Positions 16,706 to 58,249 of a stretch of DNA of 58,630 nt are shown one piece after another. This DNA comes from a virus (taxonomy: Duplodnaviria > Caudoviricetes). Below the pieces are notes generated by a model. That model searched no databases. It worked only from the letters and a program-made list of their open reading frames with translations, and was not told where the DNA came from. Each line of letters opens with the position of its first letter. Within the stretch, counting starts at the first letter, position 1. The stretch covers positions 1-58,630 of the IMG/VR virus record IMGVR_UViG_3300027861_000034. One strand, given 5' to 3'. The position numbers were made by a program, and so were the translations under genes.

Positions 16706-17140
16706 ATGGCGATAGGAGACGAACACAAGTTCTCGGTACCACTGAGAGTCAACAAGAACAAGAAGTCTATTAACTACTTCTACCTTAATCTTAATAACTT
16801 TATTCAAGTATCAAAGAACTATATCTTACGCAACAATCTCAAACAGAAATACTCCGAGTTAGTTAGACCGCTTCTAAGCCACCTCAAGCGCATTGATAAC
16901 CAAGTCTATATTCAGTACACAATATACGGTAAGGATGCTAGAGAGTTCGATATAGGCAATGTAGGAGCGGTTGTAGATAAGTTCCTTTGTGATGTGTTGG
17001 TTAAGGAGGATGTGTTAGAGGATGATAACTATAAGTTCCTACCGGTAGTGATGTATAGGTGGGGTGGAATTGACAGAGAGAACCCAAGGGCTGATGTACT
17101 AATCAAAGAGATAGAGTATGTGCCTGTTAACGAGAGATAG
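16706..17140 (+). CDS. rusA: RusA-like Holliday junction resolvase
   Basis: FDIGN...KFLCD.L....LEDDN and DRENPR motifs. Confidence 0.8.
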   Translation: MAIGDEHKFSVPLRVNKNKKSINYFYLNLNNFIQVSKNYILRNNLKQKYSELVRPLLSHLKRIDNQVYIQYTIYGKDAREFDIGNVGAVVDKFLCDVLVKEDVLEDDNYKFLPVVMYRWGGIDRENPRADVLIKEIEYVPVNER

Positions 17141-17155
17141 TCTACAACTGTAGAC
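17140..17155. promoter_or_regulatory. GTNTACA-NN-TGTANAC palindrome (first of ~24 copies)
   Basis: GTCTACA-AC-TGTAGAC directly before the AAGGAG of the RHH-like gene. Confidence 0.85.
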
Positions 17156-17166
17156 AAGGAGAAGAG

Positions 17167-17634
17167 ATGAAGAAGGTAGATGAGACAAGGCCGATAAGCG
17201 CAAGGATACCTATTGAGCTTTATGAGATCATAGAAGCTAAGCTGAAAGATGCTTGGGCTAAGGGCAAGAAAATACCACTCAAGACTAAGGGTAAGTTCAG
17301 AGACCCTAGACTGTCAGATATTTTGATTGATATGTTGGCTGATGCAGTGATCAAAGATGAACAGAGTGGTGAATATGTTGAGGACTTTTGGGATAGACTT
17401 GCGATTGCTCTCACAGAGAAAGGTGATTTAAAGGTTAGGTCTCTTGGGGTTGAGGACTGTAATAGGATACAGGATTTAGCTAGAAGCTACGGGTTTGAAT
17501 CTAATATTAGATCAAGTGCTTGTTATATTTTCTTTTATAAAAAATTCGGTAAGAAAGGTATGAGGGAGTTAACTTGCTCCGATTTTGAAGAGACATTTAC
17601 AGAACATAAAAACAGAGAGATAGAGAGGGATTAA
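17167..17634 (+). CDS. Putative ribbon-helix-helix DNA-binding protein
   Basis: N-terminal strand RPISARIP, helix IELYEIIEAKL, helix LSDILIDML (Arc/CopG pattern with a long loop). Confidence 0.55.
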   Translation: MKKVDETRPISARIPIELYEIIEAKLKDAWAKGKKIPLKTKGKFRDPRLSDILIDMLADAVIKDEQSGEYVEDFWDRLAIALTEKGDLKVRSLGVEDCNRIQDLARSYGFESNIRSSACYIFFYKKFGKKGMRELTCSDFEETFTEHKNREIERD

Positions 17635-17636
17635 TT

Positions 17637-17981
17637 ATGATGGATGAACTGATAGGAAAGATTGAACAATGGGCTGAGAGTAATGGTATCAATAGAAGCA
17701 ATGGTGTTACCGCTATTCATCAATACGCTAAGATAAAAGAAGAGTTCAATGAGCTAGGTGATGCACTTAATAACATGCTAAACAACTCACCTAATGCAGA
17801 GACAGCAGAGGCGAACGCTAACCATGTAGACCTTGAGATAGCCGACCTAGTTATAGCTACTATAGTCCTTGCTAAGATACACGGCACTGATATAAGAACC
17901 TGCTTATCAAAGGGTTATGAGAAGATAGAGCATCGTACAGGAGAGATCATTAACGGTATGTTTATAAGGGAGAGGGACTGA
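17637..17981 (+). CDS. MazG-like NTP pyrophosphohydrolase
   Basis: IEQWA...Q..K..EE..EL...EIAD...CL...YEKIEHRTG..ING.F. Confidence 0.85.
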   Translation: MMDELIGKIEQWAESNGINRSNGVTAIHQYAKIKEEFNELGDALNNMLNNSPNAETAEANANHVDLEIADLVIATIVLAKIHGTDIRTCLSKGYEKIEHRTGEIINGMFIRERD

Positions 17982-18186
17982 TGAGAGTATTAAAAGAAGA
18001 TGAATTGGATAGGGTAGTGCGCATGTGTGAAGAGACTGAGGGAGTTAGGCCTTTGTGTGGATGGGTTCCTTGTGTTGGTAGGGAATGCGAGGGTTGCTTA
18101 ATTGATGAGTACTATAATGAGGCCGAGAAAAGGTTTCCCGATGGTATGACCTATGATGAAGCATTTCAATTCTTGGAGGATAAATA

Positions 18187-18624
18187 ATGTGTGATCAATG
18201 TGAGATATACAAGGCTAGGATAGATGAGCTGGAGACTGCTATGAGTAGAACTAACACATCTTTTGGTAGGCTACTGAAGAATAGGGCACCTAAGAAAAAA
18301 GAGAAGACCACTGGGACTGATTGGTTTGATCAATTTAATCGCTATCAACAGGCTGACAGTAACTTCATACAGGCTTGGAATACGTTTGTAGAGTTCCGCA
18401 AGCAGAAGGGTAAGGCTATGACCTTGATCGCTGGACAGAGAATGCTTAGTAAGTTAGCACCGTTTGATCTATCTATTCAGACTGCGAGTTTGTATACAGC
18501 TGTAGATAAGGGATGGACTAACTGTTACCCCGAATCTGAAGGCAAGTCTTATGGTAGCTTTAAGCAAGAGAAGAGCGGTCAGTTTATAGGCGCACAAGTC
18601 GAAGTTAATTTGGAGGATTTATAG
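18187..18624 (+). CDS. Replication protein (initiator C-terminal-like domain)
   Basis: AW..FVEFRKQKGK.MT...GW motif typical of phage initiator C-termini; coupled to DnaB. Confidence 0.55.
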   Translation: MCDQCEIYKARIDELETAMSRTNTSFGRLLKNRAPKKKEKTTGTDWFDQFNRYQQADSNFIQAWNTFVEFRKQKGKAMTLIAGQRMLSKLAPFDLSIQTASLYTAVDKGWTNCYPESEGKSYGSFKQEKSGQFIGAQVEVNLEDL

Positions 18625-19955
18625 TGCCGATAGCTAGTATTGAGACTGAGAGAATTGTACTTGGTAAGATACTCGGCCTAGATGATTTCGATATTCAATC
18701 ACGGTTCATTAACATGTGTGATGTCGAGTGCTTCTTTGTTCCTATCCATAAAGACATTTGGGTATTGATGAATAAGCTGATGATCCAAGGACGTATGACT
18801 TGCCCTGCTACAGTATTCTCCGAGATAAGTATTGATGAGAACGTCTTAGCTGACATCTTGATCAATAAGTTTGATAGTAATGAGACTCTTAAATTCAACA
18901 TCAAAACCCTGCTAAACTATTCTGCTAGAAGGTTTTATAGTGAGAGTGGTAGATCAATAGAGGAGCTGGCTAATGTCGGTGGTGTTGATTGTTCTGATAC
19001 AATCCTTGAGGTTATAGACAGTATAGATAAGAGAGCTAAGGCTTTGAAGATCACTAAGCAACGTGACTCTAAGACCCTGCTATCAAGTATCGTTCACAAT
19101 ATGAAAGAGGGAGGTAGCAAAGAACTAAGGGTAGTGGAGTATGGAGTACCGCTATTCGATAAGTACTACAAGCATGAACGTGGTCACACTCATACGATAG
19201 GTGCTCAACCATCTGTAGGTAAAACTGCAATGGCACTAACTATTATGAGAGGAGTTCTACACGCTGGAGGTACAGTTTTTATATCAGTTAAGGAGTCTGA
19301 TGCTGAAGAGATAATGTGCAAGATGATATGCCAAGAGTCCAACGTAGCCTACTCTAAGATGAGATATGATCAGAGCGAACTAACTCAGCCGGAGTTTGAT
19401 AGGATTCAAAGAGCTATTGAGTATATCTATTCGATGCAGGAACGCATCTATATCTTTGGTGGTAAGGATTGGGAGCATTCAACAGAGTCTATAGAAGCTC
19501 AATTGGAGGCCATAGAGCAACGTGGAGTGCAGTTAGACTTAGTTGTGACTGATTATGTACAGAACCTTAAGGTACCGCTTAGGATTCAATCTAGGCCAAG
19601 GTACCAACAAGTAGAATGGATGGTAGAAAAGATGGCTGACCTTCACAAGAGGTTTGATGTTGCTGGAGTACTACTATCACAGCTGAACAGAAGTATAGAT
19701 GGGGTGCCTCACTTACATAATCTAAAGGAAGCCAGTAAGATTGAGGAAGAGAGTTCGATGATCACGTTCTTGCATAGAGATAAGGAGACCCAGCCGGTAA
19801 ACAACCAGCTACCTACTATGGTCTATAGCGAGAAGAACCGTAATGGAGAGCTTTGGGGAATGAGAGATGGGTTTGTAATGAATATACCTTCTACTCACTT
19901 CAGTACTAAGCTACATAAATATGAACCAAAATACGCACCGAGTGTACAGGTGTAG
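18624..19955 (+). CDS. dnaB: DnaB-like replicative helicase
   Basis: E..VLG N-terminus, GAQPSVGKT, VVTDYVQ, LSQLNR, IEE, KNRNG motifs. Confidence 0.9.
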   Translation: MPIASIETERIVLGKILGLDDFDIQSRFINMCDVECFFVPIHKDIWVLMNKLMIQGRMTCPATVFSEISIDENVLADILINKFDSNETLKFNIKTLLNYSARRFYSESGRSIEELANVGGVDCSDTILEVIDSIDKRAKALKITKQRDSKTLLSSIVHNMKEGGSKELRVVEYGVPLFDKYYKHERGHTHTIGAQPSVGKTAMALTIMRGVLHAGGTVFISVKESDAEEIMCKMICQESNVAYSKMRYDQSELTQPEFDRIQRAIEYIYSMQERIYIFGGKDWEHSTESIEAQLEAIEQRGVQLDLVVTDYVQNLKVPLRIQSRPRYQQVEWMVEKMADLHKRFDVAGVLLSQLNRSIDGVPHLHNLKEASKIEEESSMITFLHRDKETQPVNNQLPTMVYSEKNRNGELWGMRDGFVMNIPSTHFSTKLHKYEPKYAPSVQV

Positions 19956-19971
19956 ACAAGGAGAAGAGAAG

Positions 19972-20394
19972 ATGAAGAAAGGTGAATGGATAACAGTAGA
20001 GTGTGGTGATAACGTGCTTGTTGGTACTATGATTAGTATACAGGATGGCTACGTTGACTTTGAGAATGATACAGAAAGAAGAAGCATAGACCTTGAAGAG
20101 GTTGACGATATGAGAACCTCAACCCAAGAGGAAATAGACAGCGTTAAGCCTAAAGAGACGTATGAGGATGTGGAGATTGAGTGGGTTTCTAAAATGGCAG
20201 AAGTTAGGCATCCCGAAAATAATAAGATATATAATATAACAGCTAAGCCTGTCGGATGGACGCTGAGTGGTTGGGCGTTGAGTGGGTATCTGCATGATGA
20301 GGAGTATATAGCTTATGTAATGCTGTTCGATGAGTCGGGAATGTCTATAAAATCCAAAGCAACCCACGCTCGATTCGTAAAGGTAGGTGAATAA
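19972..20394 (+). CDS. Hypothetical protein
   Basis: ATG 19972 after AAGGAG and a palindrome copy. Confidence 0.6.
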   Translation: MKKGEWITVECGDNVLVGTMISIQDGYVDFENDTERRSIDLEEVDDMRTSTQEEIDSVKPKETYEDVEIEWVSKMAEVRHPENNKIYNITAKPVGWTLSGWALSGYLHDEEYIAYVMLFDESGMSIKSKATHARFVKVGE

Positions 20395-20898
20395 AATGTT
20401 AGCTATATTACTAGGAACAATTATGACTCTAATGACATTGGGGTTTGTTATAATACCTTTTATCTGTATTATTATCGACACCTATCAAAAGCTAACCAAC
20501 AAAGAGGATACATCATGTCGGTTGAGAAGACGCTAGACCTAATCGACAAGCTGATAGCAAGAGGTGATATGAAAATGGCGAGAGCTTTATCACGCAAGAT
20601 CGAACCGAAATTAAATGAGATAACAACAAACACAATCAAAGAACTACATCAATCAATCAAAGATTTTAGACAACCAAAACAAAAAGGAACAACATGATCA
20701 CAGTTTTTAGACCAAATGATTTCACGAAGGAAGGACTAGTAGCATTCAAAGAGTGTGGCAAACTAAACAGATCACACTTGAGGTATAACTTTAGAGTCTA
20801 CCTAGATAGGACAGATGAGGCGTACTACTCTGATAAGGATGAGGGAGAGATACTACAGGATATGAAGCAGGTTAAGATGAGCAGATAGAAAAGAGATA

Positions 20899-20932
20899 GG
20901 GGGCGACCATTACGGTTAGCCCCCTTTTTTTT
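20899..20932 (+). terminator. Intrinsic terminator where the two transcription units converge
   Basis: GGGGGCGACC-attac-GGTTAGCCCCC followed by T8. Confidence 0.85.
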
Positions 20933-20936
20933 GTGC

Positions 20937-21110
20937 CTAGTCTTCGTCCGGATGCGCCTCTTCAGCATCACCTAGAACATTGTCAACAATATCAAAGATC
21001 GAATCATCAATCTCATTGCTGGTTGAGTCTACTACCATCTCCAGTACGTGCATAACTACCTTGCGCACCAAAGACCACGGCATTAATTTTAATAACATTG
21101 AAACACTCAT
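20937..21110 (-). CDS. Small protein (57 aa, not in ORF track), lysis-region type
   Basis: GGAG RBS; MSVSMLLKLMPWSLVRKVV...DSTSNEIDD. Confidence 0.6.
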   Translation of the reverse strand: MSVSMLLKLMPWSLVRKVVMHVLEMVVDSTSNEIDDSIFDIVDNVLGDAEEAHPDED

Positions 21111-21111
21111 A

Positions 21112-21390
21112 CTATTCTCCTTTTAGTTCTTTAACTATCTTCTTTAGCTTCTGCGTATCTGTTGTTCTACGCTCCTTGTGATCATTGAACTCAACCTGCA
21201 ACTTGTCTATACGCCTGTGAATGATCTCTCTACAGTCGTGACACTCTTGCTTTGTTGAGAACGTCTTCTGTATCTCATTGATAATCTCTAGTACAGCATT
21301 ACGTATAGCTAGCTTCACCACTGCATAACCTACCAATACGATACCTACGATTATAGGCCAATACTCTACTAACATGTTCACGGTCTTCAT
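21112..21390 (-). CDS. Putative holin-like protein (single TM plus coiled coil)
   Basis: N-terminal TM segment WPIIVGIVLVGYAVV; position at end of late operon. Confidence 0.5.
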   Translation of the reverse strand: MKTVNMLVEYWPIIVGIVLVGYAVVKLAIRNAVLEIINEIQKTFSTKQECHDCREIIHRRIDKLQVEFNDHKERRTTDTQKLKKIVKELKGE

Positions 21391-21478
21391 TCCTTTTCCT
21401 TTTAGTTGTGTACAGCTGTATACTGTGGGTGGTGAATAAAACTAGCATACAGTGTACGGTTATTCAATATTTAATTAA

Positions 21479-22012
21479 CTAACTTCCATAGACTTCATCA
21501 TGTGCTTTTGCTTTGCATTCCCCTACATAAGCTCTATAAGCAACGTAGGCAACATTTGTTGCATCTTCTATACCATCTGCGATTAAAGCAAACTCATCGT
21601 CCTGTGTGTACTTCTCTCGTATATTCTCTACTACTAAAGCATTGTACTCTTGTAGTTCTCTCTCTTCTTTGAGTTGAGCAAAGTAATCTGCTGTCTGATA
21701 CTCTACCACTCCATCAATCACCATAAGCTCCGAGTTATCCCGTACGATTGCACCATCATGTTCAACGGCTGTCTGCGTGATAGTCTCCTTGCCTAGCTTC
21801 CATTGTTCTAGTTTAGTTATGTATTCGGGAAATGTAGGCTCTACGTAAGGCGGTAAAACCTGCCCATCTGCAATTGCCTTGTCATAATCTGCTTTTGCTT
21901 TTTGCTTGACAGATTCACGCATTGCCATTTCGCGTTCATAATCTTTTTGCCCGAAGTCTTCCTGTACTGAGCTTGTTACTTCGCTTCCGTTTACTGCGTA
22001 TACCATGTTCAT
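21479..22012 (-). CDS. Putative tail fibre assembly/chaperone protein
   Basis: Follows the fibre gene; C-terminal IREKY..DDEFAL...Y..Y...CKA.A motif. Confidence 0.55.
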   Translation of the reverse strand: MNMVYAVNGSEVTSSVQEDFGQKDYEREMAMRESVKQKAKADYDKAIADGQVLPPYVEPTFPEYITKLEQWKLGKETITQTAVEHDGAIVRDNSELMVIDGVVEYQTADYFAQLKEERELQEYNALVVENIREKYTQDDEFALIADGIEDATNVAYVAYRAYVGECKAKAHDEVYGS

Positions 22013-22022
22013 AATTTTTCTC

Positions 22023-23477
22023 CTAGTAAAATGAGCAAACTAATTTGCCCGTTATTGTGTTTGAATTACTTGCTTTGATTTGTGCTGTCTCAAAGATACT
22101 GGAGCTGTCTTTAATCCATAAGCCATTCAGTCCTATCGAATTTTCATTTGCATTGTATTTACTCAAGCAGACCCTATTAGATCCATTTTTGAGAGAAATA
22201 AGACTACTAAAATCGCAAACCTTCCTTATATATCCGAAAATATTTACACCCAATTGAATGGCTGATGTTGTTGAGGAAGTACTAGAAGCTAAATACTGCC
22301 TATCTACAGTTTGAGTTAAATTATTAAAGGTTATACCCATAAAACAATAAGAGTCGGCCCCCTCCCCCACAAAATCCACTTTGCAAAACAGCGCATCACT
22401 AGGAATCTCAAAACTATGACCTGCTGAGAAATCGCCTGCAATGTCTACCACTTGTCGATATGTCCACGGTGTCAAATCTGCGTTGTAGCCTTTTGGGACT
22501 GCGTAGAGTTGTATGTTGCCCGATACGCTTGCCGATGGTCGTAGCAGTAGCGAGGTCATTGGGGTTGATGTGTCGGGATTGGTTGTGTATCGCTCGACTT
22601 GCTGTGCCGCTACTTGTTCGTTTAAAGTACTTGTTGATATGTTTTTCCTACCAACCTCTGCATTTATACACGTTTCTGAATCTGGGTATATTTGAAAATC
22701 TTCTGTTTCTGGGATATTTGCAGAATACAGAGTTCCGTTGATATTATACATATGTTGCATTGTTTTGTCAGCCACAACAAGTTCATTTATATATCCATCT
22801 ATAGTTGAATCCAATCCACTACTCTTCACAACAATATCATACAACTCCCCGTCAATCTCAACACCTTCCGTATCATTCACGCCACCGAATATAATATCTG
22901 CGGTTTGATTTGTAAGCGTTAAATTCTTGAGCAAAATCGCGTGTGGATTGTACTGGATTTTTGGGACTGCGGTTATTACTAGGGTGTAGGTGATTGTTGC
23001 AGTTGATGTACTTTGAAATTGAATTGACGTTAGTTCTGTGCTCGTGTCGGATGTGTAATAGGATTCTTTTATTATATTTGTTGATGCAATCTTACTAAAT
23101 GATGCTATTTCATCTACATGCCTTTTGTTGCCAATTAAACCCGTTATTTTTCCGTTATTAAACGATGGATAGCTTGATTGTGACGATTGAGCAATACCAA
23201 CAAAAGCCGATGTTCCGCTAAACGCAGAAGCCGTTGTATTTCTACCCTGCATAAAATCCCTTGAATATGAAGTTGAATTATTTAGCTCAAATGTTACAGC
23301 AGTCTCAGAGCTTTGAGAATGCAAAACAAAATGATACTCATAATCATAAACCTCTGAACCTTCGCCCTCGATAGTTAAATCAATATCCTCAAAGTTCACA
23401 CCTGCCGTAACCGCTTTAGTCTCGCGGTCAATTCGGCATACTGTGCGGTGTACGTTTTTCTTTTTTGGAAATACCAT
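22023..23477 (-). CDS. Putative receptor-binding/tail fibre protein with three tandem beta domains
   Basis: S/T-rich; three internal repeats ending D.S...TS...-like; position after the fibre adaptor. Confidence 0.6.
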   Translation of the reverse strand: MVFPKKKNVHRTVCRIDRETKAVTAGVNFEDIDLTIEGEGSEVYDYEYHFVLHSQSSETAVTFELNNSTSYSRDFMQGRNTTASAFSGTSAFVGIAQSSQSSYPSFNNGKITGLIGNKRHVDEIASFSKIASTNIIKESYYTSDTSTELTSIQFQSTSTATITYTLVITAVPKIQYNPHAILLKNLTLTNQTADIIFGGVNDTEGVEIDGELYDIVVKSSGLDSTIDGYINELVVADKTMQHMYNINGTLYSANIPETEDFQIYPDSETCINAEVGRKNISTSTLNEQVAAQQVERYTTNPDTSTPMTSLLLRPSASVSGNIQLYAVPKGYNADLTPWTYRQVVDIAGDFSAGHSFEIPSDALFCKVDFVGEGADSYCFMGITFNNLTQTVDRQYLASSTSSTTSAIQLGVNIFGYIRKVCDFSSLISLKNGSNRVCLSKYNANENSIGLNGLWIKDSSSIFETAQIKASNSNTITGKLVCSFY

Positions 23478-23479
23478 AA

Positions 23480-23914
23480 TTACCTCACAATCTTATATGA
23501 TGCACTCACTGTATCGTACTCCAAACATAAGACACCATCGGCTATAACAACTGTAGGTACAATTGTATCTCCACTCGTAGCTTTCTCAATCTTTACTTGA
23601 GCTGTACCACTGACGTAGATATAGTATTGTGATCCGTTAGACGCTGTATCCGGAACTGTCACTGTACCATTTACGCTACCTGCAAATGTATTAACCTTAG
23701 TGTTTGCTTGGAGTGTGTCTGTATCTACTACTATATTGGTAAGAGCTGGCGGTGTATAACCTTGTCCTCCCGATACTAGATCAAGACCACCTAGTGTTAC
23801 GCCATCTCCTATACGAAACTTTTCATTAGTTACATCGTAGACCATCTCTCCATCTTCTAGTGTGATTGCATCCAACTGTGCTGATGTGCCAAAAGGCGGT
23901 TTAAAAATACTCAT
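23480..23914 (-). CDS. Tail fibre protein with Mtd-N-like domain
   Basis: GT.AQ.....L.DGE..YD.....FRIGDGVT.GG motif. Confidence 0.7.
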   Translation of the reverse strand: MSIFKPPFGTSAQLDAITLEDGEMVYDVTNEKFRIGDGVTLGGLDLVSGGQGYTPPALTNIVVDTDTLQANTKVNTFAGSVNGTVTVPDTASNGSQYYIYVSGTAQVKIEKATSGDTIVPTVVIADGVLCLEYDTVSASYKIVR

Positions 23915-24732
23915 TACACTCTTCCTCCATAAGTTAGTGTTGCTGTTGAATCAACTCTACTACCTAGAAAGAAGTTGATTTCGTTTATACTTGCGTTGTT
24001 TATTACATTGTTAACATTTGTCTCTGCTAGTTCTGCTCCTGCCTGTGCTGTCTGTGCCTGTAGTGCGTAGTCCAAAGAGTCTTGAGCTGATGCCTCTGAT
24101 GCACTTGCACTTGCACTTGCTGAGTTTGCATAACCCTCTGCCTCTGCTGTTCCCTGCTCAACTGCTTTGTCCACTGCCTCGTCTAGCAAATCTTCACTTA
24201 CTGAGAAGTCTCCGTTCTCATCAAACCCTAATAAGGAATTAGCTCTCACCGCTTTGGTTGGTAGAATATTATCACTGTTCTCTACCTTCTCACTAGGGGG
24301 AAATCTAACAGAGTTCCTATCAGCCTCAACCATATCTTGAGCCATCATACACTGACGATCCTGCTCAAACTCCAATTGCACAGGGTTCATATCCTGCTCG
24401 AACTCCATATCGTACTCTTGGACTAGCTCGGTATCCCTTGTGATAGTTACCTGTAGTTCTGTGTTTTCGTATACAGCTGTATCCAATATCGTGATGCTAC
24501 CTGTTGTAGGAAAGCTAGGGTCTGTCTGATCAAATGTATAATCAGTGTCCTCTATCAATACACTTTCATCTCCTAGCACTGTATCATACAGATATACTAG
24601 CAGGTCTTTGGATTGTGCGACTGGGAAATTGAATGGTAATTCAGCTACCCCCGACATGACATAGACTTCCTTCAATGAATCCGGTTCAACTATTGTCAAT
24701 TTATACCTCCTTATGTTTGTTTTAAGAGCCAT
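23914..24732 (-). CDS. Tail fibre adaptor (T7 gp17-N-like)
   Basis: F.F....DL.VY...L....DY...ITI...R.T...E.E.DR..M..Q; RAN..LGFD. Confidence 0.75.
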   Translation of the reverse strand: MALKTNIRRYKLTIVEPDSLKEVYVMSGVAELPFNFPVAQSKDLLVYLYDTVLGDESVLIEDTDYTFDQTDPSFPTTGSITILDTAVYENTELQVTITRDTELVQEYDMEFEQDMNPVQLEFEQDRQCMMAQDMVEADRNSVRFPPSEKVENSDNILPTKAVRANSLLGFDENGDFSVSEDLLDEAVDKAVEQGTAEAEGYANSASASASASEASAQDSLDYALQAQTAQAGAELAETNVNNVINNASINEINFFLGSRVDSTATLTYGGRV

Positions 24733-24806
24733 AGAGCAATCTTATCAGAAGAAGCGGGTGTGACTTCATCCGTTACTCTACAGCACCTTACGTTTAATTT
24801 AAACCG

Positions 24807-48555: not shown

Positions 48556-48644
48556 ACTCCTCCTTTTGTTAAGTTATACCTCTAATCTAACCTCAGTATA
48601 AGGAAGTTCAACTTCCATAAAGAGTAAATATAACCCAAATAACC

Positions 48645-49936: not shown

Positions 49937-49952
49937 TGGCACATCGGTTGCT
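49937..49952 (+). promoter_or_regulatory. Sigma-54 (-24/-12) promoter candidate
   Basis: TGGCAC-atcgg-TTGCT, an exact match to TGGCAC-N5-TTGCW, pointing into the early operon. Confidence 0.65.
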
Positions 49953-50358
49953 ACTCTACTCAATTACAAGCAACATCGGTTCCGCTGGTACTTCTTGCCA
50001 CTCCGATAGTTTACTCACTGCAACAGTGGGACGTGAGACTGCAACACGTTAAACAGTATGCTAATTGAAAATTGAATAATACGGAATTGCTTAAACCAAT
50101 AAGACTAAAGTTTGAGCTTAGCAACACAGAGTAAGGCTAGCAAACAACTAGCCGTGAAAACTTGCTAAGATAGCTCAAAATAATAACCTTAGTTGCCTAG
50201 GCGAAGTTGGTCACTATACGACTAATAATCTTTTGATTATTTACAGGGGGCAGAATAAAGGTCTGCCTCTTACTAAGTGATTACAAGTTGTATTTACTTA
50301 ATGGTTACAATGTGTAGCCGAAACCCAAACAGTCTACAAATGTAGACAAGGAGATAGT

Positions 50359-50898: not shown

Positions 50899-51394
50899 TC
50901 TTAAGCAATGGGACTTGCAGGGTCGCGACCTAGTTAAGCTAAGAACTAGGCGTGAAAGTGAAGAGAAAGTATTGTTGGTGTTGCTAGTCGCTGGAATAGG
51001 GTTGGTAATGCTGGCAGATGCTTTAATCATGGGGTAACAATATTTTACCGTGGTATCAATTGAAAGTGGTATCACGCTATAAGTATTGTGTACAGCTGTA
51101 TACAAGTTAACAAGAACCCTATAAAATAGGAGATACCAAATGGTATTCAATCGGCATGCAAATGCTAGGCAATTAGGCTTAAACCACTAACAAGTGAGGC
51201 AATATGAAAGAGTATTGTTTAAAGCAAGTACGGCTTATCAGATTATTAGCTGTACAGATGAAAGTAAGTGACGATGTAGCTACAGAAATTTGGTTAGAAA
51301 AGGGCTATGCGGTTCGTTATGCCAATGAATATGGCTATTTGAAAAGTGAATAAACTGTATACAGCTGTATACAAAGTAAGGAAGGGAAAAGATT

Positions 51395-51745
51395 ATGAGT
51401 ACAAATTCAACAATTACAATTAAAGATAGAAGTGTATTTAGAACTATTTATTGCCATTGGGATGGATATATAGATGGCGTTGGTTTTGAATTAAGAGATA
51501 ATTACAGGAATAAAGAAGCGATTTTAGAGCTACTTAAGTTAGGTGAATTATCTGCCCTTGGAGCTGATATAAGTAAGTGTGTAGCCTACCATAGAGATAG
51601 AGGCGAGGACTTATGTGAGGCCGATATAAATGAGTCCTATGATAAGTGCAGAAAAGAGGAATATAATTACCTGTGGATGCACGGTCAATGGTGGGAAGGT
51701 AGTTCGATTAATTCAATGAAGCCATTAAGTGAAATAGCAAAGTAA
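51395..51745 (+). CDS. Conserved phage early protein (IYCHWDGY family)
   Basis: MST.S.I...IYCHWDGY..GVG..L, AYHRDRGE, EYNYL. Confidence 0.75.
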   Translation: MSTNSTITIKDRSVFRTIYCHWDGYIDGVGFELRDNYRNKEAILELLKLGELSALGADISKCVAYHRDRGEDLCEADINESYDKCRKEEYNYLWMHGQWWEGSSINSMKPLSEIAK

Positions 51746-51759
51746 GGAAGGGAATAATT

Positions 51760-53412
51760 ATGAGTAATTTACAGGATTTTAGTGTTGAGCAAATAACAAA
51801 GGCAAGTAAGGAATTTTTGCCGACGTTGGATTTGGGTAGTGGTACAGCTATTGAGTTAGCAAGTAAGGTACGGGCTAATTTGAAGTTTAAGCCATTTACA
51901 GAGCAGTCATTGGTGCAATGGATAGAAGCTGGTGGCAAGGAAAGTGAGAAGCCTAAGCCACAAGATAAGAGTCAAGACGATACACCTTTTGACGATACTC
52001 CAGCACCACAGTCACAAACTAAGAAACCTCATGCAAGTGAGAAGCCTCAGAGCGATAAGGCTAAAGAAGTTGAGCAGAAAATGCAGGAAGCTATGAAGGC
52101 TATGCAAGAGGCAATGGAGGAAAAGCATGAACAAGAGTCTCAAAAGCAATCTCAAGAGGAAGCTGATGAGCGGTACGTATTGCAAGATGATTACAATGTA
52201 GATAAAGAAAAGATTGCTACTGAATTTGAGTCTATTGATCAAGACTTAGAGGAATTGTGTACAGCTGTAGACAAAGTTACTGAACAAATCAAATCTATTG
52301 ACAAGTCAGTAAAGAAAATTGAGATTGTAACTCCCGAACAACCTAAGCCAGTTGATGTAGGCGTAGCTCACTGGACTGTACCGGTGATAAGTAAGGCGGT
52401 ATATAAAGGCGTGCACCTAACCTTAGTAGGGCCAGCTGGTAGTGGTAAGACAACGGCATGTCACCAAGTAGCACAAGGTTTGGAGATGGACTATCACCCA
52501 ATGTCAGTAGGGCCACAAACTACAAAGTCTGATTTGATGGGATACAAGGACGCTCACGGTGTGTACCATGATACTCCAGTAAGAAAGGCATTTGAGCACG
52601 GTGGCTTATTGCTACTAGATGAGATGGATTCTGCTAATGCTGGTGTACTTACTATTCTGAATAGTTTACTGGCTAATGGACTATGCTCATTCCCCGATAA
52701 GACTGTTGATATGCACAAAGATTTCCGCTGTATCACGGCCTGTAATACGTTTGGAAGGGGCGCAGATAGGATGTATGTAGGTCGTAATCAGTTGGATGCG
52801 GCGACTTTGGATAGGTTCGGAGTGCTGGATTTTGACTATGACGAAGCCTTAGAAGCTATTATAATCGGTGTTCAACCTAAGGAAGCTCAAAAGGAATGGA
52901 AGTTTCAGAAGACACGTACAGTCTCAAGTGAGGAATGGTTGGCTCGTGTTCAACACTACCGTAAACGTGCCGGAGAATTGAAGCAACGTATGGTTATCAG
53001 TCCAAGAGCAGTGATCAACGGTAACAAGCTATTGGATATGGTGCTTACTGTTGGTGATGTCGAAGATATATGTGTGTTCAAAGGTGTTGATAATGAGATT
53101 AAACGTAAGCTCAAAGAGGGTTTTAAGTTTGATGATGGTAAGAAAAAGAAAACACCTAAATCGAAAGCCGATGCTGGCGGTGGTAATGGTGTGTGGATTG
53201 AGCACAAAGGTGGTAAGATGCCGGTGAGTGGGGACACGTTGGTTGATATAAGATTTGCTGATGAAAGTGATAGGTCAACCGACCAAGGTAAACAAGCTAG
53301 AAATTGGAGTTGGCGTTGGAGTGGTACACCTAGAGATAGCAATATTACAGCTTACCGTATATCACTACCTAAGACTGTTGAGAAAACAGAGGATGATCCG
53401 TTCGACTTCTGA
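51760..53412 (+). CDS. MoxR/CbbQ/CobS-like AAA+ ATPase
   Basis: GPAGSGKT, LLLDEMD, NTFG.G..R.YVGRNQLDAATLDRF, ISPRA. Confidence 0.9.
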   Translation: MSNLQDFSVEQITKASKEFLPTLDLGSGTAIELASKVRANLKFKPFTEQSLVQWIEAGGKESEKPKPQDKSQDDTPFDDTPAPQSQTKKPHASEKPQSDKAKEVEQKMQEAMKAMQEAMEEKHEQESQKQSQEEADERYVLQDDYNVDKEKIATEFESIDQDLEELCTAVDKVTEQIKSIDKSVKKIEIVTPEQPKPVDVGVAHWTVPVISKAVYKGVHLTLVGPAGSGKTTACHQVAQGLEMDYHPMSVGPQTTKSDLMGYKDAHGVYHDTPVRKAFEHGGLLLLDEMDSANAGVLTILNSLLANGLCSFPDKTVDMHKDFRCITACNTFGRGADRMYVGRNQLDAATLDRFGVLDFDYDEALEAIIIGVQPKEAQKEWKFQKTRTVSSEEWLARVQHYRKRAGELKQRMVISPRAVINGNKLLDMVLTVGDVEDICVFKGVDNEIKRKLKEGFKFDDGKKKKTPKSKADAGGGNGVWIEHKGGKMPVSGDTLVDIRFADESDRSTDQGKQARNWSWRWSGTPRDSNITAYRISLPKTVEKTEDDPFDF

Positions 53413-53526
53413 AGGCGTGAATATGAGTACTCTTTTGATACTGCTGAAGATAAGTGGTATCAAGAGTTTGAGGCTAGACAAGATAAATACAAGTAACTGT
53501 GTACAGCTGTATACAAAGAGGATGAT

Positions 53527-54387
53527 ATGAAATTAACTGAGACTAAGAAAGGTAAAAAGAAACTGACTCACTATGAGTTTGCTAGTCTCGCTGAGCTGGC
53601 TGACCATATAGAGGACTTACCTATTGACTATGACCGTGCAAGTATGGAGAAACCGGATAGTAAGTGGGCTGGCTGTGACTTTCCTACTGCTATAAGTAAG
53701 GCACAAACTGGTGATCCTTTACTAGCTGAGAAGCTGGCACATAAGGTTGATGCTGTTGAGTCATTGCTAGATAGTGAGGGTGTCGAGATAATCAGAGATG
53801 TGATAGGTGATTTCTTTGATATAGGTACGGTATTAAGTGGTGAACCGGAGTGCTGGTGGCGTGAGGAACTATCACCTCAAAAGGATACGATAAGGATTGA
53901 ATGTGCCTTTAGTTTATCAGCTAGTATAAGTGAGGATATGCTTATGAACAGGGGTGGTGCTGTAGTTGCTTTATGTGACAGCTTAGCTGATGCTGGGTAT
54001 GGTGTTGACCTAAGAATGGTGGCTGGTATTGAGTATAGTGGTAACTATTTCATGGTTGATGTAGGTGTATCATGTAAGCCGTTAGACATAGACTCTGTTG
54101 CATTCTGTCTGGCTCACCCTGCTACATTAAGGCGATTGGTATTTGGTCTTATGGAAACACACTACAATAAGATTAACTGTGGTGATGGATACGGTAAGCC
54201 GTGTGACTACTACAATGCTGATGGCAAGAGAGATAAGGAAGGCATTCACTTTGTATCTAATACTAACAAGGCATTCAACAAGTATAACTTTAGAGATGTA
54301 GAGGAAGCTGAGAAGCACGTAGTTAGAATGATTGAGAAGTACAATGAGTTAACAAAAAATAACGAACCATTATTCTTGGAGGGATAG
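53527..54387 (+). CDS. VWA-like partner of the MoxR ATPase
   Basis: DVIG...D....LSGEPECW, S.S.S (MIDAS-like), AHPA.LRR, GYG. Confidence 0.7.
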   Translation: MKLTETKKGKKKLTHYEFASLAELADHIEDLPIDYDRASMEKPDSKWAGCDFPTAISKAQTGDPLLAEKLAHKVDAVESLLDSEGVEIIRDVIGDFFDIGTVLSGEPECWWREELSPQKDTIRIECAFSLSASISEDMLMNRGGAVVALCDSLADAGYGVDLRMVAGIEYSGNYFMVDVGVSCKPLDIDSVAFCLAHPATLRRLVFGLMETHYNKINCGDGYGKPCDYYNADGKRDKEGIHFVSNTNKAFNKYNFRDVEEAEKHVVRMIEKYNELTKNNEPLFLEG

Positions 54388-54573
54388 GTATGAGTTACTT
54401 AGTAATACAACACAAAGGCGATGGACATAAGGTACCTCTTGCTATACATGGCGAATTGGAAACCGCTAATGATCATAAGGATTGGTGTACATCTAATTGT
54501 ATTGATGAGGCGAGTGATGATTTTTTCTATATAGTAGAACTTAATGGTGTTGAACAAAAGAGAGGATATTAAA

Positions 54574-54942
54574 ATGAATAAGATAATAAAGATAGACAGT
54601 AAAACAAAAACAATGGAAGTCCTTGCGCTTAAAGCGAATACAGCTGTAGACAGTTCTGTACAGTCAACACATATGAGAGAGTTGATAGGGTGTAATTACT
54701 TTGAACACGCTGTACTGGGTGGCAACATCGACATTTGGTTTGATGAAGAGTATCAGCTACATGAAGAGCATGAAGGGTACGGGTTTAAACTTCCAAACTT
54801 TGAGCAACCTGTGCTAGGTAATGCAATCATAACAGCCTTTGATGAAGAGGGTAATACAATGGGCTTAGAGAATGCCAATGAGTTGGCTAGGTTTATGATG
54901 ACAGTAATACAGTTCGGACAATCTAAAAAGAAGGAGGAATAG
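54574..54942 (+). CDS. DUF3846-like protein
   Basis: LIG...E......DIW.DEE...GNAII...D.EG...GL. Confidence 0.65.
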   Translation: MNKIIKIDSKTKTMEVLALKANTAVDSSVQSTHMRELIGCNYFEHAVLGGNIDIWFDEEYQLHEEHEGYGFKLPNFEQPVLGNAIITAFDEEGNTMGLENANELARFMMTVIQFGQSKKKEE

Positions 54943-55209
54943 ATGTTGTATGATCTAAAGAAGTTGAGGCGTAGACTAGGTATCAAGGTACCGGAGATAG
55001 TAGAGAAATTTAACCTACATAACAGACAGATAGTGTACTACTGGGAACGCAAGAAGCAGTATCCGGAGTACGTCAAGGAGTGGATGGATAAGAAAGAGGA
55101 CGATATGAAAGCCTTCAATAATAAGGCTTCACTTAGAGCAATTGACGAGAGACTAAAACGATTAGAAAAAAAGATAGGAGGTTCAGATGTTTCGACCACT
55201 GAGAAGTAA
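54943..55209 (+). CDS. XRE/Cro-like HTH protein
   Basis: LKKLRRRLGI...EI.......Q.VYYWE.....P. Confidence 0.7.
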   Translation: MLYDLKKLRRRLGIKVPEIVEKFNLHNRQIVYYWERKKQYPEYVKEWMDKKEDDMKAFNNKASLRAIDERLKRLEKKIGGSDVSTTEK

Positions 55210-55666
55210 TGAGATAGAATGTAGGGTTCAATCAGTAAAGGCTAACGGGTTTGTAATGTTGCTATACAAGGACGCTCGATGCGATATGTCTATACTTGAT
55301 GAGACAGTCGGCCCACTCAATTGGATGCGCTCACATTCAAGGGAAAACGCTAACTGTACTGTGTCTATATTTAACAAAGAGATAGGGCAATGGATAGGCA
55401 AGGAGGATACAGGTACTAAATCCAACACCGAAGCTGAGAAAGGTATGGCTTCTGACTCGTTCAAAAGGGCGTGTTTTAATTGGGGTATAGGCCGTGAATT
55501 ATATACAGCTCCATTCGTTTGGATTAATCAGATGCAATATGTCAAGAACGGTAAGGTTTATGAGAAGTTTTCAGTAGCTCACTTGGCTGTTGAGAATGGA
55601 GAGATAACACAGTTGGCTATAGCTGATAGTCGTGGAACAGTAATCTATAAATACAATTGCCAGTAA
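55187..55666 (+). CDS. Rad52/Sak-like single-strand annealing protein
   Basis: LLYKDAR....LDE.VG..NW, K.D.G.....EAEKG.ASD.FKRA...WGIGRELY. Confidence 0.85.
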   Translation: MFRPLRSNEIECRVQSVKANGFVMLLYKDARCDMSILDETVGPLNWMRSHSRENANCTVSIFNKEIGQWIGKEDTGTKSNTEAEKGMASDSFKRACFNWGIGRELYTAPFVWINQMQYVKNGKVYEKFSVAHLAVENGEITQLAIADSRGTVIYKYNCQ

Positions 55667-56097
55667 TCGTGTACAGCTGTATACAAAAGGAGAAGATAAT
55701 GAGTGAAGTAATTGAGTTGCCGTTGAGTGTGTACAATGATGTAGAGTTCGTTGATACCGTTAAGGTTACGACCCTTTGGTCTGATGGTGATAATATAACA
55801 TTTAAAGTAGAGGAGAAGTAAGATGAGTAATCACAACGCAGAAACATCAAAGCTATTCAAGCAAAGATACACTTCGCAGAACATTATATCAGAGAAGCAA
55901 CGACAACAGATAGAGAAGCTAGAGGAGGAGGTAGCAGTACTAAAACATACTGTAATTCGTGTACATAATACAGCGCAATTAGCCGGTGACTTTCCATCAA
56001 AACAGACGATGGTAGATATAGTTAACTTGTGTGATACTGTACTATAAGTTTGAGGGTAAATAATAGGTCAGTTAGACCGCAAAAATGGAGAAGAGAA

Positions 56098-57006
56098 ATG
56101 AGTAAAGATAGACTAGAGTGGTTGGAGAATCGCAAGAAGGGTGTTGGTGGTTCTGAGATAGCAAGTATATGTGGGCTGAGCAAGTGGGCTACACCTAAAG
56201 ATGTATGGGATAGTAAGCTGGGTAACGTGCCTGTATCAGATGAAATGACTACGGCTCAATTGTTTGGTACATTGGCTGAGCCTATAATCGTTGAGATGTT
56301 TGAGCGTAAAACAGGGCTACACGTAACGACAGGATGTGATCAAGTTACTGATGCTAATTACCATTATATGCTGGCTAACGTGGATGGTATCATTGCGAGT
56401 GAGGGTTGCATCTTTGAGGCTAAGACTGCATCTGCATTTATGGCTGGTGATTGGGGAACTGAAGATACAGAAGAGATTCCTATCGGTTACTACCTACAAG
56501 TCCAACACTATATGGGCGTGCTGAACATGAACAAGGCGTATGTAGCGGTGTTGATCGGTAACGCTGACTTCAGAGTATATACTATCCAAAGAGATGATAC
56601 AGTTATCAAGCGTATTAGATTGGCTTGTAAGACGTTTTGGGAGGACTTCGTAGAAAAGAAGGTACAACCTCCACTTACTGTAGATGAGACTATTAGCGAG
56701 GCTTGCAACGTAATACAGGGCGCAATCATTCATACTACTCCATTGGTAGAGGTAGCACTATCTGATCTTAAGGAGTTGAAGGCTCAAGAGAAGGTTCTTA
56801 AAGCTGACATCAAAGACCAAGAGAATATTGTTAAGGCTCACATTGGAGAGAATGAGATACTAGTCAACGCTGATGGTGGTACGCTGGCAACGTGGAAACA
56901 GTCAGTATCAAATAGGTTTGACTCAAAGGTGTTCAAGAGTGACAACCCCGAAACATATAATCAATACTGCTTTGAATCTGCATCCCGTAGATTCCTAGTT
57001 AAATAA
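56098..57006 (+). CDS. YqaJ-like viral recombinase exonuclease
   Basis: WL..RK.G.GGSE, G...EP, ANVDG, EAKT, Y.LQVQHYM. Confidence 0.9.
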   Translation: MSKDRLEWLENRKKGVGGSEIASICGLSKWATPKDVWDSKLGNVPVSDEMTTAQLFGTLAEPIIVEMFERKTGLHVTTGCDQVTDANYHYMLANVDGIIASEGCIFEAKTASAFMAGDWGTEDTEEIPIGYYLQVQHYMGVLNMNKAYVAVLIGNADFRVYTIQRDDTVIKRIRLACKTFWEDFVEKKVQPPLTVDETISEACNVIQGAIIHTTPLVEVALSDLKELKAQEKVLKADIKDQENIVKAHIGENEILVNADGGTLATWKQSVSNRFDSKVFKSDNPETYNQYCFESASRRFLVK

Positions 57007-57039
57007 ACTGTATACAACTGTACACAAAGGAGAATAGAG

Positions 57040-57432
57040 ATGAATATGAAAGCAGAGATGAATGCAATACTAAATGAGATGGACGCAAGTGAGATTGATG
57101 TAAGTGCAATGAGAAGGCCGGAAGGTATGACTGAAACAGAGCATCGTGAGGCTTTAGTTAGTGAAGTGTCAGAGATGATAGCATGTGTTGCTACTGGAAT
57201 TAAGATAGCACTAACTGGTAAGGATGGATTCAAAAACCTAAAGGAGTTTGATGAGTTTATTCATAAGTTTAGAAAATCAACCAATACTCTTGATGATATG
57301 ACTGAAAGACTTGCAATGATTATGAGTGTTAAGATCAGTGAGTCCGGTGATGAGGGAGTACAATTTTTAAAAGGCATGAAACTAGAAGTCCTAGACATGC
57401 TTAAAAAACAAATAACAAACGAAGGAGAGTAG
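57040..57432 (+). CDS. Hypothetical protein
   Basis: AAGGAG RBS after a palindrome copy. Confidence 0.6.
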   Translation: MNMKAEMNAILNEMDASEIDVSAMRRPEGMTETEHREALVSEVSEMIACVATGIKIALTGKDGFKNLKEFDEFIHKFRKSTNTLDDMTERLAMIMSVKISESGDEGVQFLKGMKLEVLDMLKKQITNEGE

Positions 57433-57633
57433 AGAGATGGTAACAGTATCAGAGGTAATGGCAGAGAAAGCAGTGTTGGAACTAAGAGTATCAGCATTGG
57501 CAAAGGTATCGGGTGATAAGCGTAAGGTGTTGACAGCTAACGAGAAGCGAGCACTAGGGGTTATCCTTAGTGAAGAGTCAGCTAAGCTAGAGTCATACAT
57601 GGGAACACAACTAACAGTAGCAGAGGTGGTATA

Positions 57634-58041
57634 ATGGAACAGGAACAAAAGGTTTGGGTCGGTGGTATCTTCTTTAAGAAGCACACGTTCTCTAATGGTG
57701 GGTCACAGATTAAGGCATGGAGTCCTAACGTAGATGAGTTATGCGCTTGGCTACAGGCTAACAAGAAGGCTGATGGTACTATCGCTTTTAATGTCGGTGG
57801 CAGTAAGGTTCCTCGTATGGACGATAAGGGTAATGAGAAGCTGAACGCAAGCCTAGACACTTGGGAGCCAGCAGGAGGGGGGCAAGCTCAACAGCAGTTT
57901 GGTCAAGCACCTCAACAGCCTATTCAGACTCCGGCTCCACAGCAAGGGTATCAGCAAGCACCACAAGGGCAGTCTGCACCACCACAATATCAGCAAGGTG
58001 TAGCTCCACAATATGCTCCGCCCCAAACCCCACAAGGTTGA
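57634..58041 (+). CDS. ssb: Single-stranded DNA-binding protein (acidic tail continues in frame to 58089 past TGA)
   Basis: Short beta domain, Q/P/G linker, in-frame downstream LTDVATDVDDDIIPF*; sits in the SSAP-YqaJ module. Confidence 0.65.
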   Translation: MEQEQKVWVGGIFFKKHTFSNGGSQIKAWSPNVDELCAWLQANKKADGTIAFNVGGSKVPRMDDKGNEKLNASLDTWEPAGGGQAQQQFGQAPQQPIQTPAPQQGYQQAPQGQSAPPQYQQGVAPQYAPPQTPQG

Positions 58042-58249
58042 CTCACTGATGTGGCTACAGATGTAGACGATGATATTATACCTTTTTAGTCCGGTAACTC
58101 ATTATACTGAGCAGTAATTAACAACAGGCAGTCCGATAACTAGTCCGTTTGAGGGCTGTCTTAATTCAATAGAGATAGAGATTATGGAATGTCACGGTTG
58201 AGTTTAAGACATTTAAGCAAAGAGAAATTTTAAAACAAATGAGGTAGAA

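Follow-up and report, generated by a model that had tools for sequence, protein, structure and literature searches.

Evenly spaced palindromes span the complete genome of a BPP-1-like marine podovirus

INTRODUCTION

Why would a phage carry the same short palindrome two dozen times along its genome, with many of the copies inside its genes? The question is raised by a stretch of 58,630 nucleotides of viral DNA (Duplodnaviria; Caudoviricetes; IMG/VR record IMGVR_UViG_3300027861_000034), which we analyzed over its full length and refer to as the window. An earlier note on this DNA, made from the letters alone, had listed 24 copies of a palindrome, GTNTACANNTGTANAC, and had described them as a lattice, partly written into coding sequence, and as a candidate for an undescribed system. 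We find that the palindrome lattice in this 42-kb marine phage is real, hugely over-represented and robust, and we weigh what kind of site it is, how its copies arose and which function could account for them.

RESULTS

The palindromes form a discrete family

Sixteen exact copies of GTNTACANNTGTANAC, a pattern with 12 fixed bases, occur in the window, which is the number counted earlier, against 0.00 across 100 dinucleotide-preserving shuffles; the pattern read backwards has no match in the window. The core TACANNTGTA is found 26 times, always within 17143-58065 (shuffle mean 1.41, maximum 6), and 24 of these cores fall one each on the 24 coordinates of the original list. Sites were also scored with a symmetric weight matrix of 18 positions that was trained on the 24 sites. 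By this measure the two surplus cores, at 23558 and 24853, are noise: they reach 2.1-2.2 bits, where every one of the 24 sites reaches 17.1 or more. Because the scores of the sites themselves (17.1-28.9 bits) are circular, the informative part is the empty range beneath them: apart from a likely degenerate extra site at 29136 (15.4 bits), which was absent from the earlier list, the best remaining score in the window is 8.4 bits, at 7123, and nothing falls between 8.4 and 15.4 bits. The palindrome copies are a discrete family without decaying members, with 24 strong sites and the weaker one at 29136 separated from noise. All of the five top-scoring sites lie in the early gene block, and the stretches 1-16207 and 21424-24468 are free of sites. 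In a literature search with motif strings and phage dyad repeats, whose coverage left out most subscription journals, the motif was not described in any phage.

The lattice spans a complete, self-closing genome

The IMG/VR record is classed as linear, with an estimated completeness of 85%. A direct repeat of 131 nt (130 of 131 letters identical) nevertheless links the end of the contig to the start of an internal Lar-like gene (Table 1). Seawater run X1 has 96% of the sampled words of the junction stretch, its contigs break at the repeat, and in one of them 30 letters identical to 58470-58499 stand immediately ahead of 16208. The region 16208-58499 closes on itself, and the closure may be that of a circle, of a concatemer or of a terminal-repeat junction. 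As the record may come from the X1 sample itself, the support of this run for closure is not independent; runs X2 and X3, which contain little of the junction stretch, are uninformative on habitat or structure. Depth in X1 is 14.9 over the left arm up to 16241, 30.2 over a shared 161-nt node and 21.9 from 16343 onward, and a second exit path with a depth of about 9 splits off after 16427. The left arm, 1-16207, is a separate assembly path that runs through the shared Lar-like gene, and the depths are also compatible with a minority form in which the arm is truly joined. Since the arm belongs to another assembly path, the absence of the motif from 1-16207 is uninformative on function; it is true, as the earlier note had it, that there is no site in 1-16211, but this is not a property of the system. 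The repeat shows a 16.2-kb tail next to a self-closing 42.3-kb unit, so the CheckV description as linear and 85% complete is misleading, and the lattice spans the complete genome of a BPP-1-like podovirus. The case also illustrates that a seemingly "motif-free arm" can result from an assembly join.

The sign of the GC skew switches at about 20 kb and again at about 50 kb, which indicates rightward genes at 1-20.4 kb and 50.3-58.6 kb and leftward genes at 48.5-21.1 kb; sense strands are purine-rich. All open reading frames (ORFs) of the unit were scanned against PHROGs; Pfam scans covered 36 of them and NCBIfam scans 9, with a few smaller ORFs in addition. The leftward, late block is a T7-like virion module by PHROGs, with small and large terminase, portal, protease-like protein, major capsid, tail tube A, nozzle and internal virion proteins. 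Its gene order is that of Bordetella phage BPP-1, including the positions of the 2052-aa Bbp10, a Bbp19-like protein and the N-terminal domain of Mtd; a 2044-aa protein without a family hit is the gene-order counterpart of Bbp10. By the nozzle protein, the nearest cultured phages are Pelagibacter podophages (32-34% identity) and BPP-1-like phages (about 26%). The rightward, early block encodes an AAA+ protein with a DUF7192 partner, Erf-like, RecE-like exonuclease, Lar-like and RusA-like proteins, and MazG-like, O-like and DnaB-like proteins.

Sites are evenly spaced and often precede gene starts

Gene positions were taken from our own gene list and checked for open frames. Of the 24 sites, 11 are entirely contained in ORFs, 11 are intergenic and the other 2 overlap an upstream gene at its 3' end. 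At nine sites (a count that includes the small ORF at 55699) a start codon follows the end of the motif by 11-22 nt, which makes the earlier remark that about half of the copies abut a ribosome-binding site (RBS) a fair one. The typical order at such a junction is stop codon, two bases, motif, 0-3 bases, Shine-Dalgarno sequence and ATG. One other site overlaps a start codon and another stands a short distance ahead of the capsid gene (Table 1), and among the intragenic copies 9 of 11 are more than 100 nt from the next start. Most sites are away from predicted promoters, and a scan for sigma-70-like promoters showed no excess (40 matches vs 49 in shuffles).

Gaps between neighboring sites range from 269 to 1466 bp in the early region and from 1185 to 3757 bp in the virion region, and the largest of them is below the chance expectation. 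The gap across the closure, from site 58053 to site 17140, is 1378 bp by hand calculation, in line with early-region spacing. The gaps have a coefficient of variation of 0.28 (late block) or 0.34 (right-hand early block), compared with about 0.93 for random placement (P<0.001 per block, 20,000 simulations each), so that both the spacing and the even spread reported before are supported. On average, neighboring sites are about 1.1 kb apart in stretches of small genes and about 2.6 kb apart in stretches of large ones.

Sites of this size, in many copies and often just upstream of genes, resemble the promoters of single-subunit polymerases, of which T7 has roughly 17 conserved examples, and the virion genes here are T7-like. 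Against a promoter for a phage-specific RNA polymerase or sigma factor, the motif is symmetric and no conserved bases were found upstream of it, neither an RNA polymerase nor a recognizable sigma factor turned up among the ORFs of the complete unit in the PHROGs and Pfam scans, and at the AAGGAG junctions a start after the motif would put the RBS at or beyond the 5' end of the mRNA, with no room for a leader. We regard such a promoter as highly improbable.

The lack of covariation favors a DNA site over an RNA element

When every site is read the way the surrounding genes run, the sites share the consensus t-G-T-(C/A/G)-T-A-C-A-(G/a)-(C/g/a)-T-G-T-A-(G/T)-A-C-A-a. Dyad symmetry spans 18 bp, with T at position 0 in 15 and A at position 17 in 20 of the 24 sites, a layout typical of dimeric DNA-binding proteins. 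By hand count, the outer two bases deviate at 7 sites on the upstream side vs 2 on the downstream side, and 12 of the 13 centers that are not self-complementary give a purine-rich reading (purine-first for two AC centers) on the sense strand. An orientation is unproven by these counts, because sense strands are purine-rich and the center is a codon in the coding copies.

Could the palindrome instead act as RNA, as an intercistronic hairpin 5' of the RBS that sets mRNA processing, stability or translation? The junction order at nine sites and the better conservation of the half closer to the downstream gene would suit such a role, and a hairpin of 6-7 bp (-5.5 to -7.7 kcal/mol) is possible in eight sites. 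The predicted hairpins of the 18-mers are nonetheless weak on average (mean -3.1 kcal/mol), 3 of the 24 do not fold, a stem mismatch is present in 13, and pairing between the variable positions N3 and N14 is possible at 11 of them, where column independence would give 9.8. Neither an Rfam family nor a tRNA matched, and 11 copies are intragenic, nine of them far from the next start; an RNA function is very unlikely. The lack of covariation, which had been claimed earlier on inspection and is borne out by the counts, together with the weak predicted hairpins favors a double-stranded DNA site for a dimeric protein. The motif is more likely a protein site of this kind than an RNA hairpin, as the earlier note had preferred.

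Intragenic copies arose by substitution in this lineage

All 11 intragenic copies are read in one frame, as x-Thr-x-Val-(Asp/Tyr/His), where the earlier description had said almost always. One of the alternative frames puts Cys in the middle of the motif, and the other is closed by TAG or TAA if the variable base is G or A; the choice of frame probably reflects which peptide is tolerable. Synonymous codons were shuffled within each gene for 2000 rounds, a control that had been set beforehand as a refutation test. The core TACANNTGTA occurs 14 times in genes, compared with a mean of 2.0 and a maximum of 8 in these shuffles, and the relaxed 16-mer occurs 11 times (mean 0.41, maximum 3), so the shuffles fail to reproduce the counts. 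Among the 18 T-x-V-[DYHN] peptides of the unit's proteins, 10 have the spelling ACA NNT GTA NAC. The peptide is itself about twofold enriched in the unit (18 observed vs 8.6 in residue shuffles, P=0.003), while the left arm has 2 against 2.2 expected. These results support the claim that the motif was written into coding sequence, with selection on both synonymous and amino-acid-changing positions.

Six short viral contigs carry the virion genes in the same order at 60-70% protein identity, and they contain no copy of the motif, no excess of half-sites and no other repeated word. Four intragenic sites fall in the region that these contigs cover, and there the relatives align without gaps but with different residues (Table 1), which shows that these copies were made in this lineage by substitutions that include amino acid changes. 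The four copies are neither insertions nor inherited protein motifs. Conservation of intragenic copies in relatives, proposed earlier as a check, was not found; as the available relatives are without any lattice, this indicates a recent, lineage-specific gain rather than a refutation.

The same alignments bear on the suggestion that the palindromes are scars or copies of a small mobile element, REP- or MITE-like, without function for the phage. Such an origin would fit the intergenic copies, which extend otherwise minimal junctions by 16-18 bp. It is at odds with the gap-free alignments, which show substitution and not insertion at four sites, with the reading frame kept by all 11 intragenic copies, with the lack of decaying copies in the empty score range and with the even spacing, which would be unexpected from transposition. 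We find this origin barely conceivable.

The main rival to the function that we favor (see Discussion) is that the sites mark or organize the genome, so that a protein reads them at even distances to label, protect, condense or move phage DNA. Models for this would be Chi with RecBCD, the sites of SlmA or Noc, KorB/ParB on plasmid RK2 or an entry ratchet. In its favor, spacing is far more even than chance, with no gap above 3.76 kb, a 6.1-kb gene has three to four sites, the amino acid cost fits "a site in every few kb" better than promoter operators, and the phage owns a recombination set (Erf-like, RecE-like exonuclease and RusA-like proteins). On the other hand, the PHROGs and Pfam scans of the unit found no ParB, SMC-like or nuclease-inhibitor domain, Chi-type signals are generally short and oriented and not 18-bp palindromes, and site density tracks gene size, as a gene-linked function would predict. 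Marking or organization is possible but doubtful. A special form of it, in which the lattice would be a "self" label, is unlikely: a phage protein would tell its own DNA from that of the host or a rival while the phage exonuclease and recombination set are active, or would ratchet or organize the genome on entry and replication. If true, it would explain both the sites forced into long genes and the sudden appearance of the lattice in one lineage.

TABLE 1 Positions of the palindromes and of associated features in the window
Feature	Position	Strand	Size	Context or properties	Pattern match	Score (bits)	Residues in relatives
Site 1	17140..17155			GTCTACAACTGTAGAC; on RusA-like stop codon; ATG 17167 follows by 11 nt	exact	24.2
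Site 2	18492..18507			within O-like gene 18187-18624, as LYTAVDK	core	23.7
Site 3	19942..19957			on DnaB-like 3' end; ATG 19972 follows by 14 nt	exact	23.9
Site 4	21408..21423			17 nt upstream of last late gene 21112-21390(-)	exact	25.4
Site 5	24469..24484			within 23914-24732(-), as LDTAVYE	core	24.4
Site 6	26976..26991			within gene for 2044-aa internal virion protein, as LNTAVDS	core	25.2
Probable degenerate extra site	29136..29151			GGCTACAATTGCAGAC; within 2044-aa gene		15.4
Site 7	29424..29439			within 2044-aa gene, as LATLVDK	core	22.3
Site 8	30609..30624			within 2044-aa gene, as QYTGVDT	exact	24.2
Site 9	34366..34381			within nozzle gene, as AFTGVYS	exact	21.6	PESGTVD
Site 10	35914..35929			within nozzle gene, as SATDVDR	core	22.9	VAGDV/IGR
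Site 11	38571..38586			36 nt upstream of major capsid gene start	exact	24.6
Site 12	40949..40964			Bbp19-like gene 3' end, as LSTDVYD; on start codon of 40513-40956	exact	24.4	DTTDEQD
Site 13	43907..43922			within GNAT-like gene 43529-43987, as LYTGVHS	exact	25.8	LLEGITS
Site 14	46533..46548			17 nt upstream of 46255-46515(-); sense-strand T run immediately before	exact	22.4
Site 15, weakest	49553..49568			TTGTACAGCTGTAGCC; in non-coding control region	core	17.1
Site 16	50332..50347			first early gene 50359 follows by 11 nt	exact	21.0
Site 17	51088..51103			intergenic, between sigma-70-like consensus matches 51060-51089 and 51099-51127	exact	28.1
Site 18	51357..51372			perfect 18-bp palindrome TGTATACAGCTGTATACA; 51395 follows by 22 nt	exact	28.4
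Site 19	52257..52272			within AAA+ (AAA_5) gene 51760-53412, as LCTAVDK	exact	28.9
Site 20	53499..53514			53527 follows by 12 nt	exact	28.1
Site 21	54636..54651			within 54544-54942, as ANTAVDS	core	23.5
Site 22	55669..55684			2 nt past Erf-like stop codon; small-ORF ATG 55699 follows by 14 nt	exact	26.5
Site 23	57010..57025			3 nt past RecE-like exonuclease stop codon; 57040 follows by 14 nt	exact	25.0
Site 24	58053..58068			11 nt past stop codon of 57634-58041	core	22.9
Lattice-bearing genome unit	16208..58499		42,292 bp	defined by the repeat and by the X1 contig joining 58499 to 16208
Repeat copy 1	16208..16338	+		start of Lar-like gene 16229-16423 (Lar_restr_allev, E 6.6e-13)
Repeat copy 2	58500..58630	+		contig end
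Non-coding control region	48580..50331		1.75 kb	between divergent late (leftward) and early (rightward) blocks; holds site 15
Candidate binder	17167..17634	+	155 aa	N-terminus ribbon-helix-helix-looking by sequence reading alone
Candidate binder	48148..48555	-	135 aa	winged-helix lead: Atlas 0.87-0.89 to MarR/HTH_36/HTH_24 clusters
Candidate binder	54943..55209	+	88 aa	23 Lys+Arg; four predicted helices; AF2 single-sequence pLDDT 72

Candidate binders and host factors

Four products had been proposed earlier as the binder, those of 17167, 54943, 48148 and 50359, and none was confirmed, the results being weak leads or uninformative models. The 48148 product had no Pfam, PHROGs or NCBIfam hit, and the Atlas values of its winged-helix lead (Table 1) are below the level that the tool rates as more than a lead. 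It more likely binds the neighboring CCTGTTAAA...TTAACA boxes than the lattice. The 50359 product is DUF3102-like, again a weak Atlas lead. Family searches gave no hit for 54943 or 17167, and scans for close relatives with these two found none; the model of the former had no Foldseek match at E<=0.001, and that of the latter (AF2 pLDDT 42) was unusable, with one homologue among 5.8 billion proteins. Searches of PDB sequences for a binder returned nothing below E 0.29. Many ORFs of the unit match no family, so that a novel repressor is compatible with the scans.

A host transcription factor that the phage borrows or titrates, such as a winged-helix repressor of the BlaI/MecI/CopY group or a TetR repressor of the FabR type, would account for the phage binder not having been found. 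The earlier note had linked the motif to BlaI/MecI/CopY, and in part this holds: the core TACANNTGTA in all 24 sites, which were found by this core, is the classic cop box, and the length of 16 bases agrees as well (PMC7253601). The refined CopY operator RNYKACANNYGTMRNY, which is needed for binding, fits only 6 of the 24 sites by hand count, however, and the 10-base core alone fails to bind; the cop box also stands once or twice per Gram-positive operon, as opposed to 24 times along a phage (PMC7253601). No BlaI/CopY-type (Penicillinase_R) Pfam hit was obtained in the 36 listed and 4 smaller ORFs of the unit that were scanned, and CopY and BlaI are Gram-positive proteins, whereas this DNA occurs in seawater metagenome runs. 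As for FabR, a hand comparison shows that the commonest form agrees in all of its 12 inner bases with the putative Shewanella desA site AGCTTACAGCTGTACGCT (PMC4273635), while the outer three bases of the FabR half-site (AGC/GCT) are unlike the conserved GT/AC here. A portal protein query found no prophage relative in 185,579 species genomes, and a search of the same genomes for the motif followed by an RBS gave 5 scattered single-match hits in unrelated bacteria, against about 4 estimated by hand for chance. A host factor is quite unlikely to be the explanation.

Other palindromes and features

Similar sites were sought in other collections. An exact-pattern scan of viral contigs found 5 singletons only, a nucleotide search of the phage collection found only a 67-nt capsid match, and no family of palindromes like this one is present in the cultured phages BPP-1, HTVC010P and Carin1. 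At least 115 metagenome stretches carry the motif, and among the matches listed most have a single site, with a few contigs that hold clusters of similar palindromes (L109, L129, L056/L103 and L050/L113). The clusters lie at 1465, 1801, 1974 and 8381 in L109 and at 1195-1352 in L129, with a further one in L043; palindromes in these contigs include GTCTACAGNTGTAGACAG, GTATACAGCTGTATACA and GTGTACAGCTGTACAC, and L043 has a tandem array of TATACAGCTG units. We treated these contigs as unrelated, since they have no protein in common with the window even at E 0.5. Relatives of the RecE-like exonuclease have identities of 24-32%, and one phage contig found through it, L138, carries at 8911-9040 five tandem TGTGCCG(TTT/AAA)CGGCACA units 22-23 bp apart, with one gap of 45 bp; it was rejected as a lattice bearer because it is a tandem iteron cluster and not dispersed. 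A terminase query also returned four contigs of 33% identity, which were left out. In a Listeria aquatica contig (L143), two TACANNTGTANAC boxes stand 55 bp apart at 7717-7787, and the pair looks like an ordinary two-box operator of the CopY/BlaI type, with the motif in use as a normal operator.

The control region between the two blocks holds further repeats. A second palindrome, (A/T)ACCTGTTAAAT(T/A)(T/C)TTAACA(A/G), which is not that of the lattice, occurs three times just upstream of 48148-48555(-), at about 48641-48662, 48684-48705 and 48731-48751; the three copies resemble a classical set of three operators or iterons. Tandem direct repeats CTTACAAAT(T/A)TCTTACAAA at about 49850-49875 and 49908-49930 may be origin iterons. 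A strong GC-rich hairpin, GGGGGCAGA...TCTGCCTC, at about 50243-50272 (+) precedes site 50332 and the first early gene by some 60 nt and could be a terminator or leader structure.

The virion module contains two small GNAT-like paralogues, 33792-34259 (-) and 43529-43987 (-), with weak Pfam hits; both match the same gene of relatives L014 and L015, and the second carries site 43907. At 23480-23914 (-) is a 144-aa protein with the N-terminal domain of the BPP-1 tropism determinant Mtd (Pfam PF18454). No reverse transcriptase was found among the scanned ORFs, so a diversity-generating retroelement seems absent. The left arm has a second replication set (DnaD-, DnaC- and DnaB-like proteins, a methyltransferase and a clamp) and, at 2406-3416 (+), a full-length homologue of Gad1, the Gabija anti-defense protein (Pfam PF25705, E 1.1e-68).

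DISCUSSION

Proposed genome-wide control by a dedicated DNA-binding protein

The discrete family, with its roughly 24 bits of symmetric information, points to a single dedicated protein that binds DNA as a dimer, and we think it probable that the sites are bound by such a protein. The function that we favor, with a probability of roughly 0.4, is genome-wide control of transcription by a protein that the phage encodes. The 24-25 copies of t-GT(C/A/G)TACA-RN-TGTA(G/T)AC-a would then be double-stranded DNA sites for one sequence-specific dimer, or pair of dimers, most likely of phage origin. The 42.3-kb BPP-1-like genome would be read as two long divergent blocks out of one control region, and the protein would occupy sites along both blocks and block or pace RNA polymerase genome-wide; site strength and density are highest where the early block begins. 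Such a scheme would follow the logic of L5 stoperators, except that the site is symmetric. We are led to this reading by the link to gene starts, by the strength and density of the sites at the early head and by the stoperator precedent; repressor sites that halt elongation throughout a phage genome are known (PMC6550527), and the promoter-like matches on both sides of site 51088 also count toward a link with expression. Binding by a protein, the identity of the binder and its effect on transcription are what we infer from these patterns.

Several observations weigh against transcription control. Without signs of lysogeny, silencing of the whole genome has no obvious use, and the unit ORFs gave no hit to a repressor, integrase, ParA/ParB or RNA polymerase (PHROGs for all, Pfam for most). 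The site is symmetric, unlike stoperators, and there is at most a hint of an orientation with transcription. Eleven sites are deep in genes, far from starts, and for the same pattern in Cluster O mycobacteriophages the authors concluded that binding serves something other than transcription initiation (PMC4351075). Both the relatives at 60-70% identity and three cultured relatives live without the lattice. Finally, no binder was identified, and the structure and Atlas work on the four candidates gave weak leads only.

Comparison with known systems

Transcription control of this kind would have a precedent in the stoperators of L5 and Bxb1 (Cluster A), with 20-30 sites per genome in both arms, most of them off promoters (PMC6550527, PMC9283540), and a known mechanism in which the repressor blocks elongation (PMC6550527). 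In number and placement the lattice is alike, with 24-25 sites, 11 of them intragenic. A stoperator is an asymmetric 13-bp site oriented with transcription, in contrast to the 16-18 bp dyad here (PMC6550527), and it serves the monomeric, two-domain immunity repressor of a temperate phage, while neither a repressor nor an integrase nor parAB was found in the unit. The lattice thus fails the defining features of stoperators, namely, asymmetry of the site and a temperate phage that makes an immunity repressor.

The KorB sites of plasmid RK2 and the dispersed C1 operators of phage P1 provide other cases in which one regulator has a dozen or more sites on a mobile genome of 60-100 kb, including sites well away from promoters. 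KorB belongs to the ParB family and the C1 sites of P1 are asymmetric; no ParB-like or C1-like protein was found in the unit scanned here.

Among published systems, the lattice most resembles the 17-bp dyad repeat of Cluster O mycobacteriophages, which have more than 30 copies, a third of them in genes, with a function left unexplained (PMC4351075); in view of these comparable repeats, the earlier description of an undescribed system was overstated. In Corndog, 34 copies divide into 14 between genes, 10 near the 5' ends of genes and 10 within genes, and a dimeric DNA-binding protein is predicted by the authors (PMC4351075). The likeness is one of kind, not of descent. In both cases a short perfect inverted repeat (7+3+7 bp there, 7+2+7 here) with a variable center occurs in tens of copies genome-wide, between and within genes and mostly off predicted promoters, without clear orientation, denser in one arm and in a phage that is not obviously temperate (PMC4351075). 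The sequences are unrelated, though (TGTTCGGNNNCCGAACA there), and a siphovirus of Mycobacterium, a GC-rich host, stands against a BPP-1-like podovirus. The Cluster O repeat is also common to all five members of the cluster, whereas the nearest available relatives here lack the motif, and the even spacing, the single frame and the origin by amino acid changes seen here are not among the features reported in the accessible text of PMC4351075.

Genome-wide arrays of a single site are known in few phages, of which only the Cluster A stoperators have a worked-out mechanism, and in the 2015 paper the symmetric arrays of Cluster O were unexplained (PMC4351075). What is new here is an unrelated marine podovirus with a clean signature, namely, recent gain, origin by amino acid changes, one reading frame and even coverage of a complete genome. 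That signature implies strong selection for site density itself, which any proposed mechanism must explain. If the binder is found, the lattice could offer a compact system of one protein and one 18-mer for testing how a phage controls or marks its whole chromosome.

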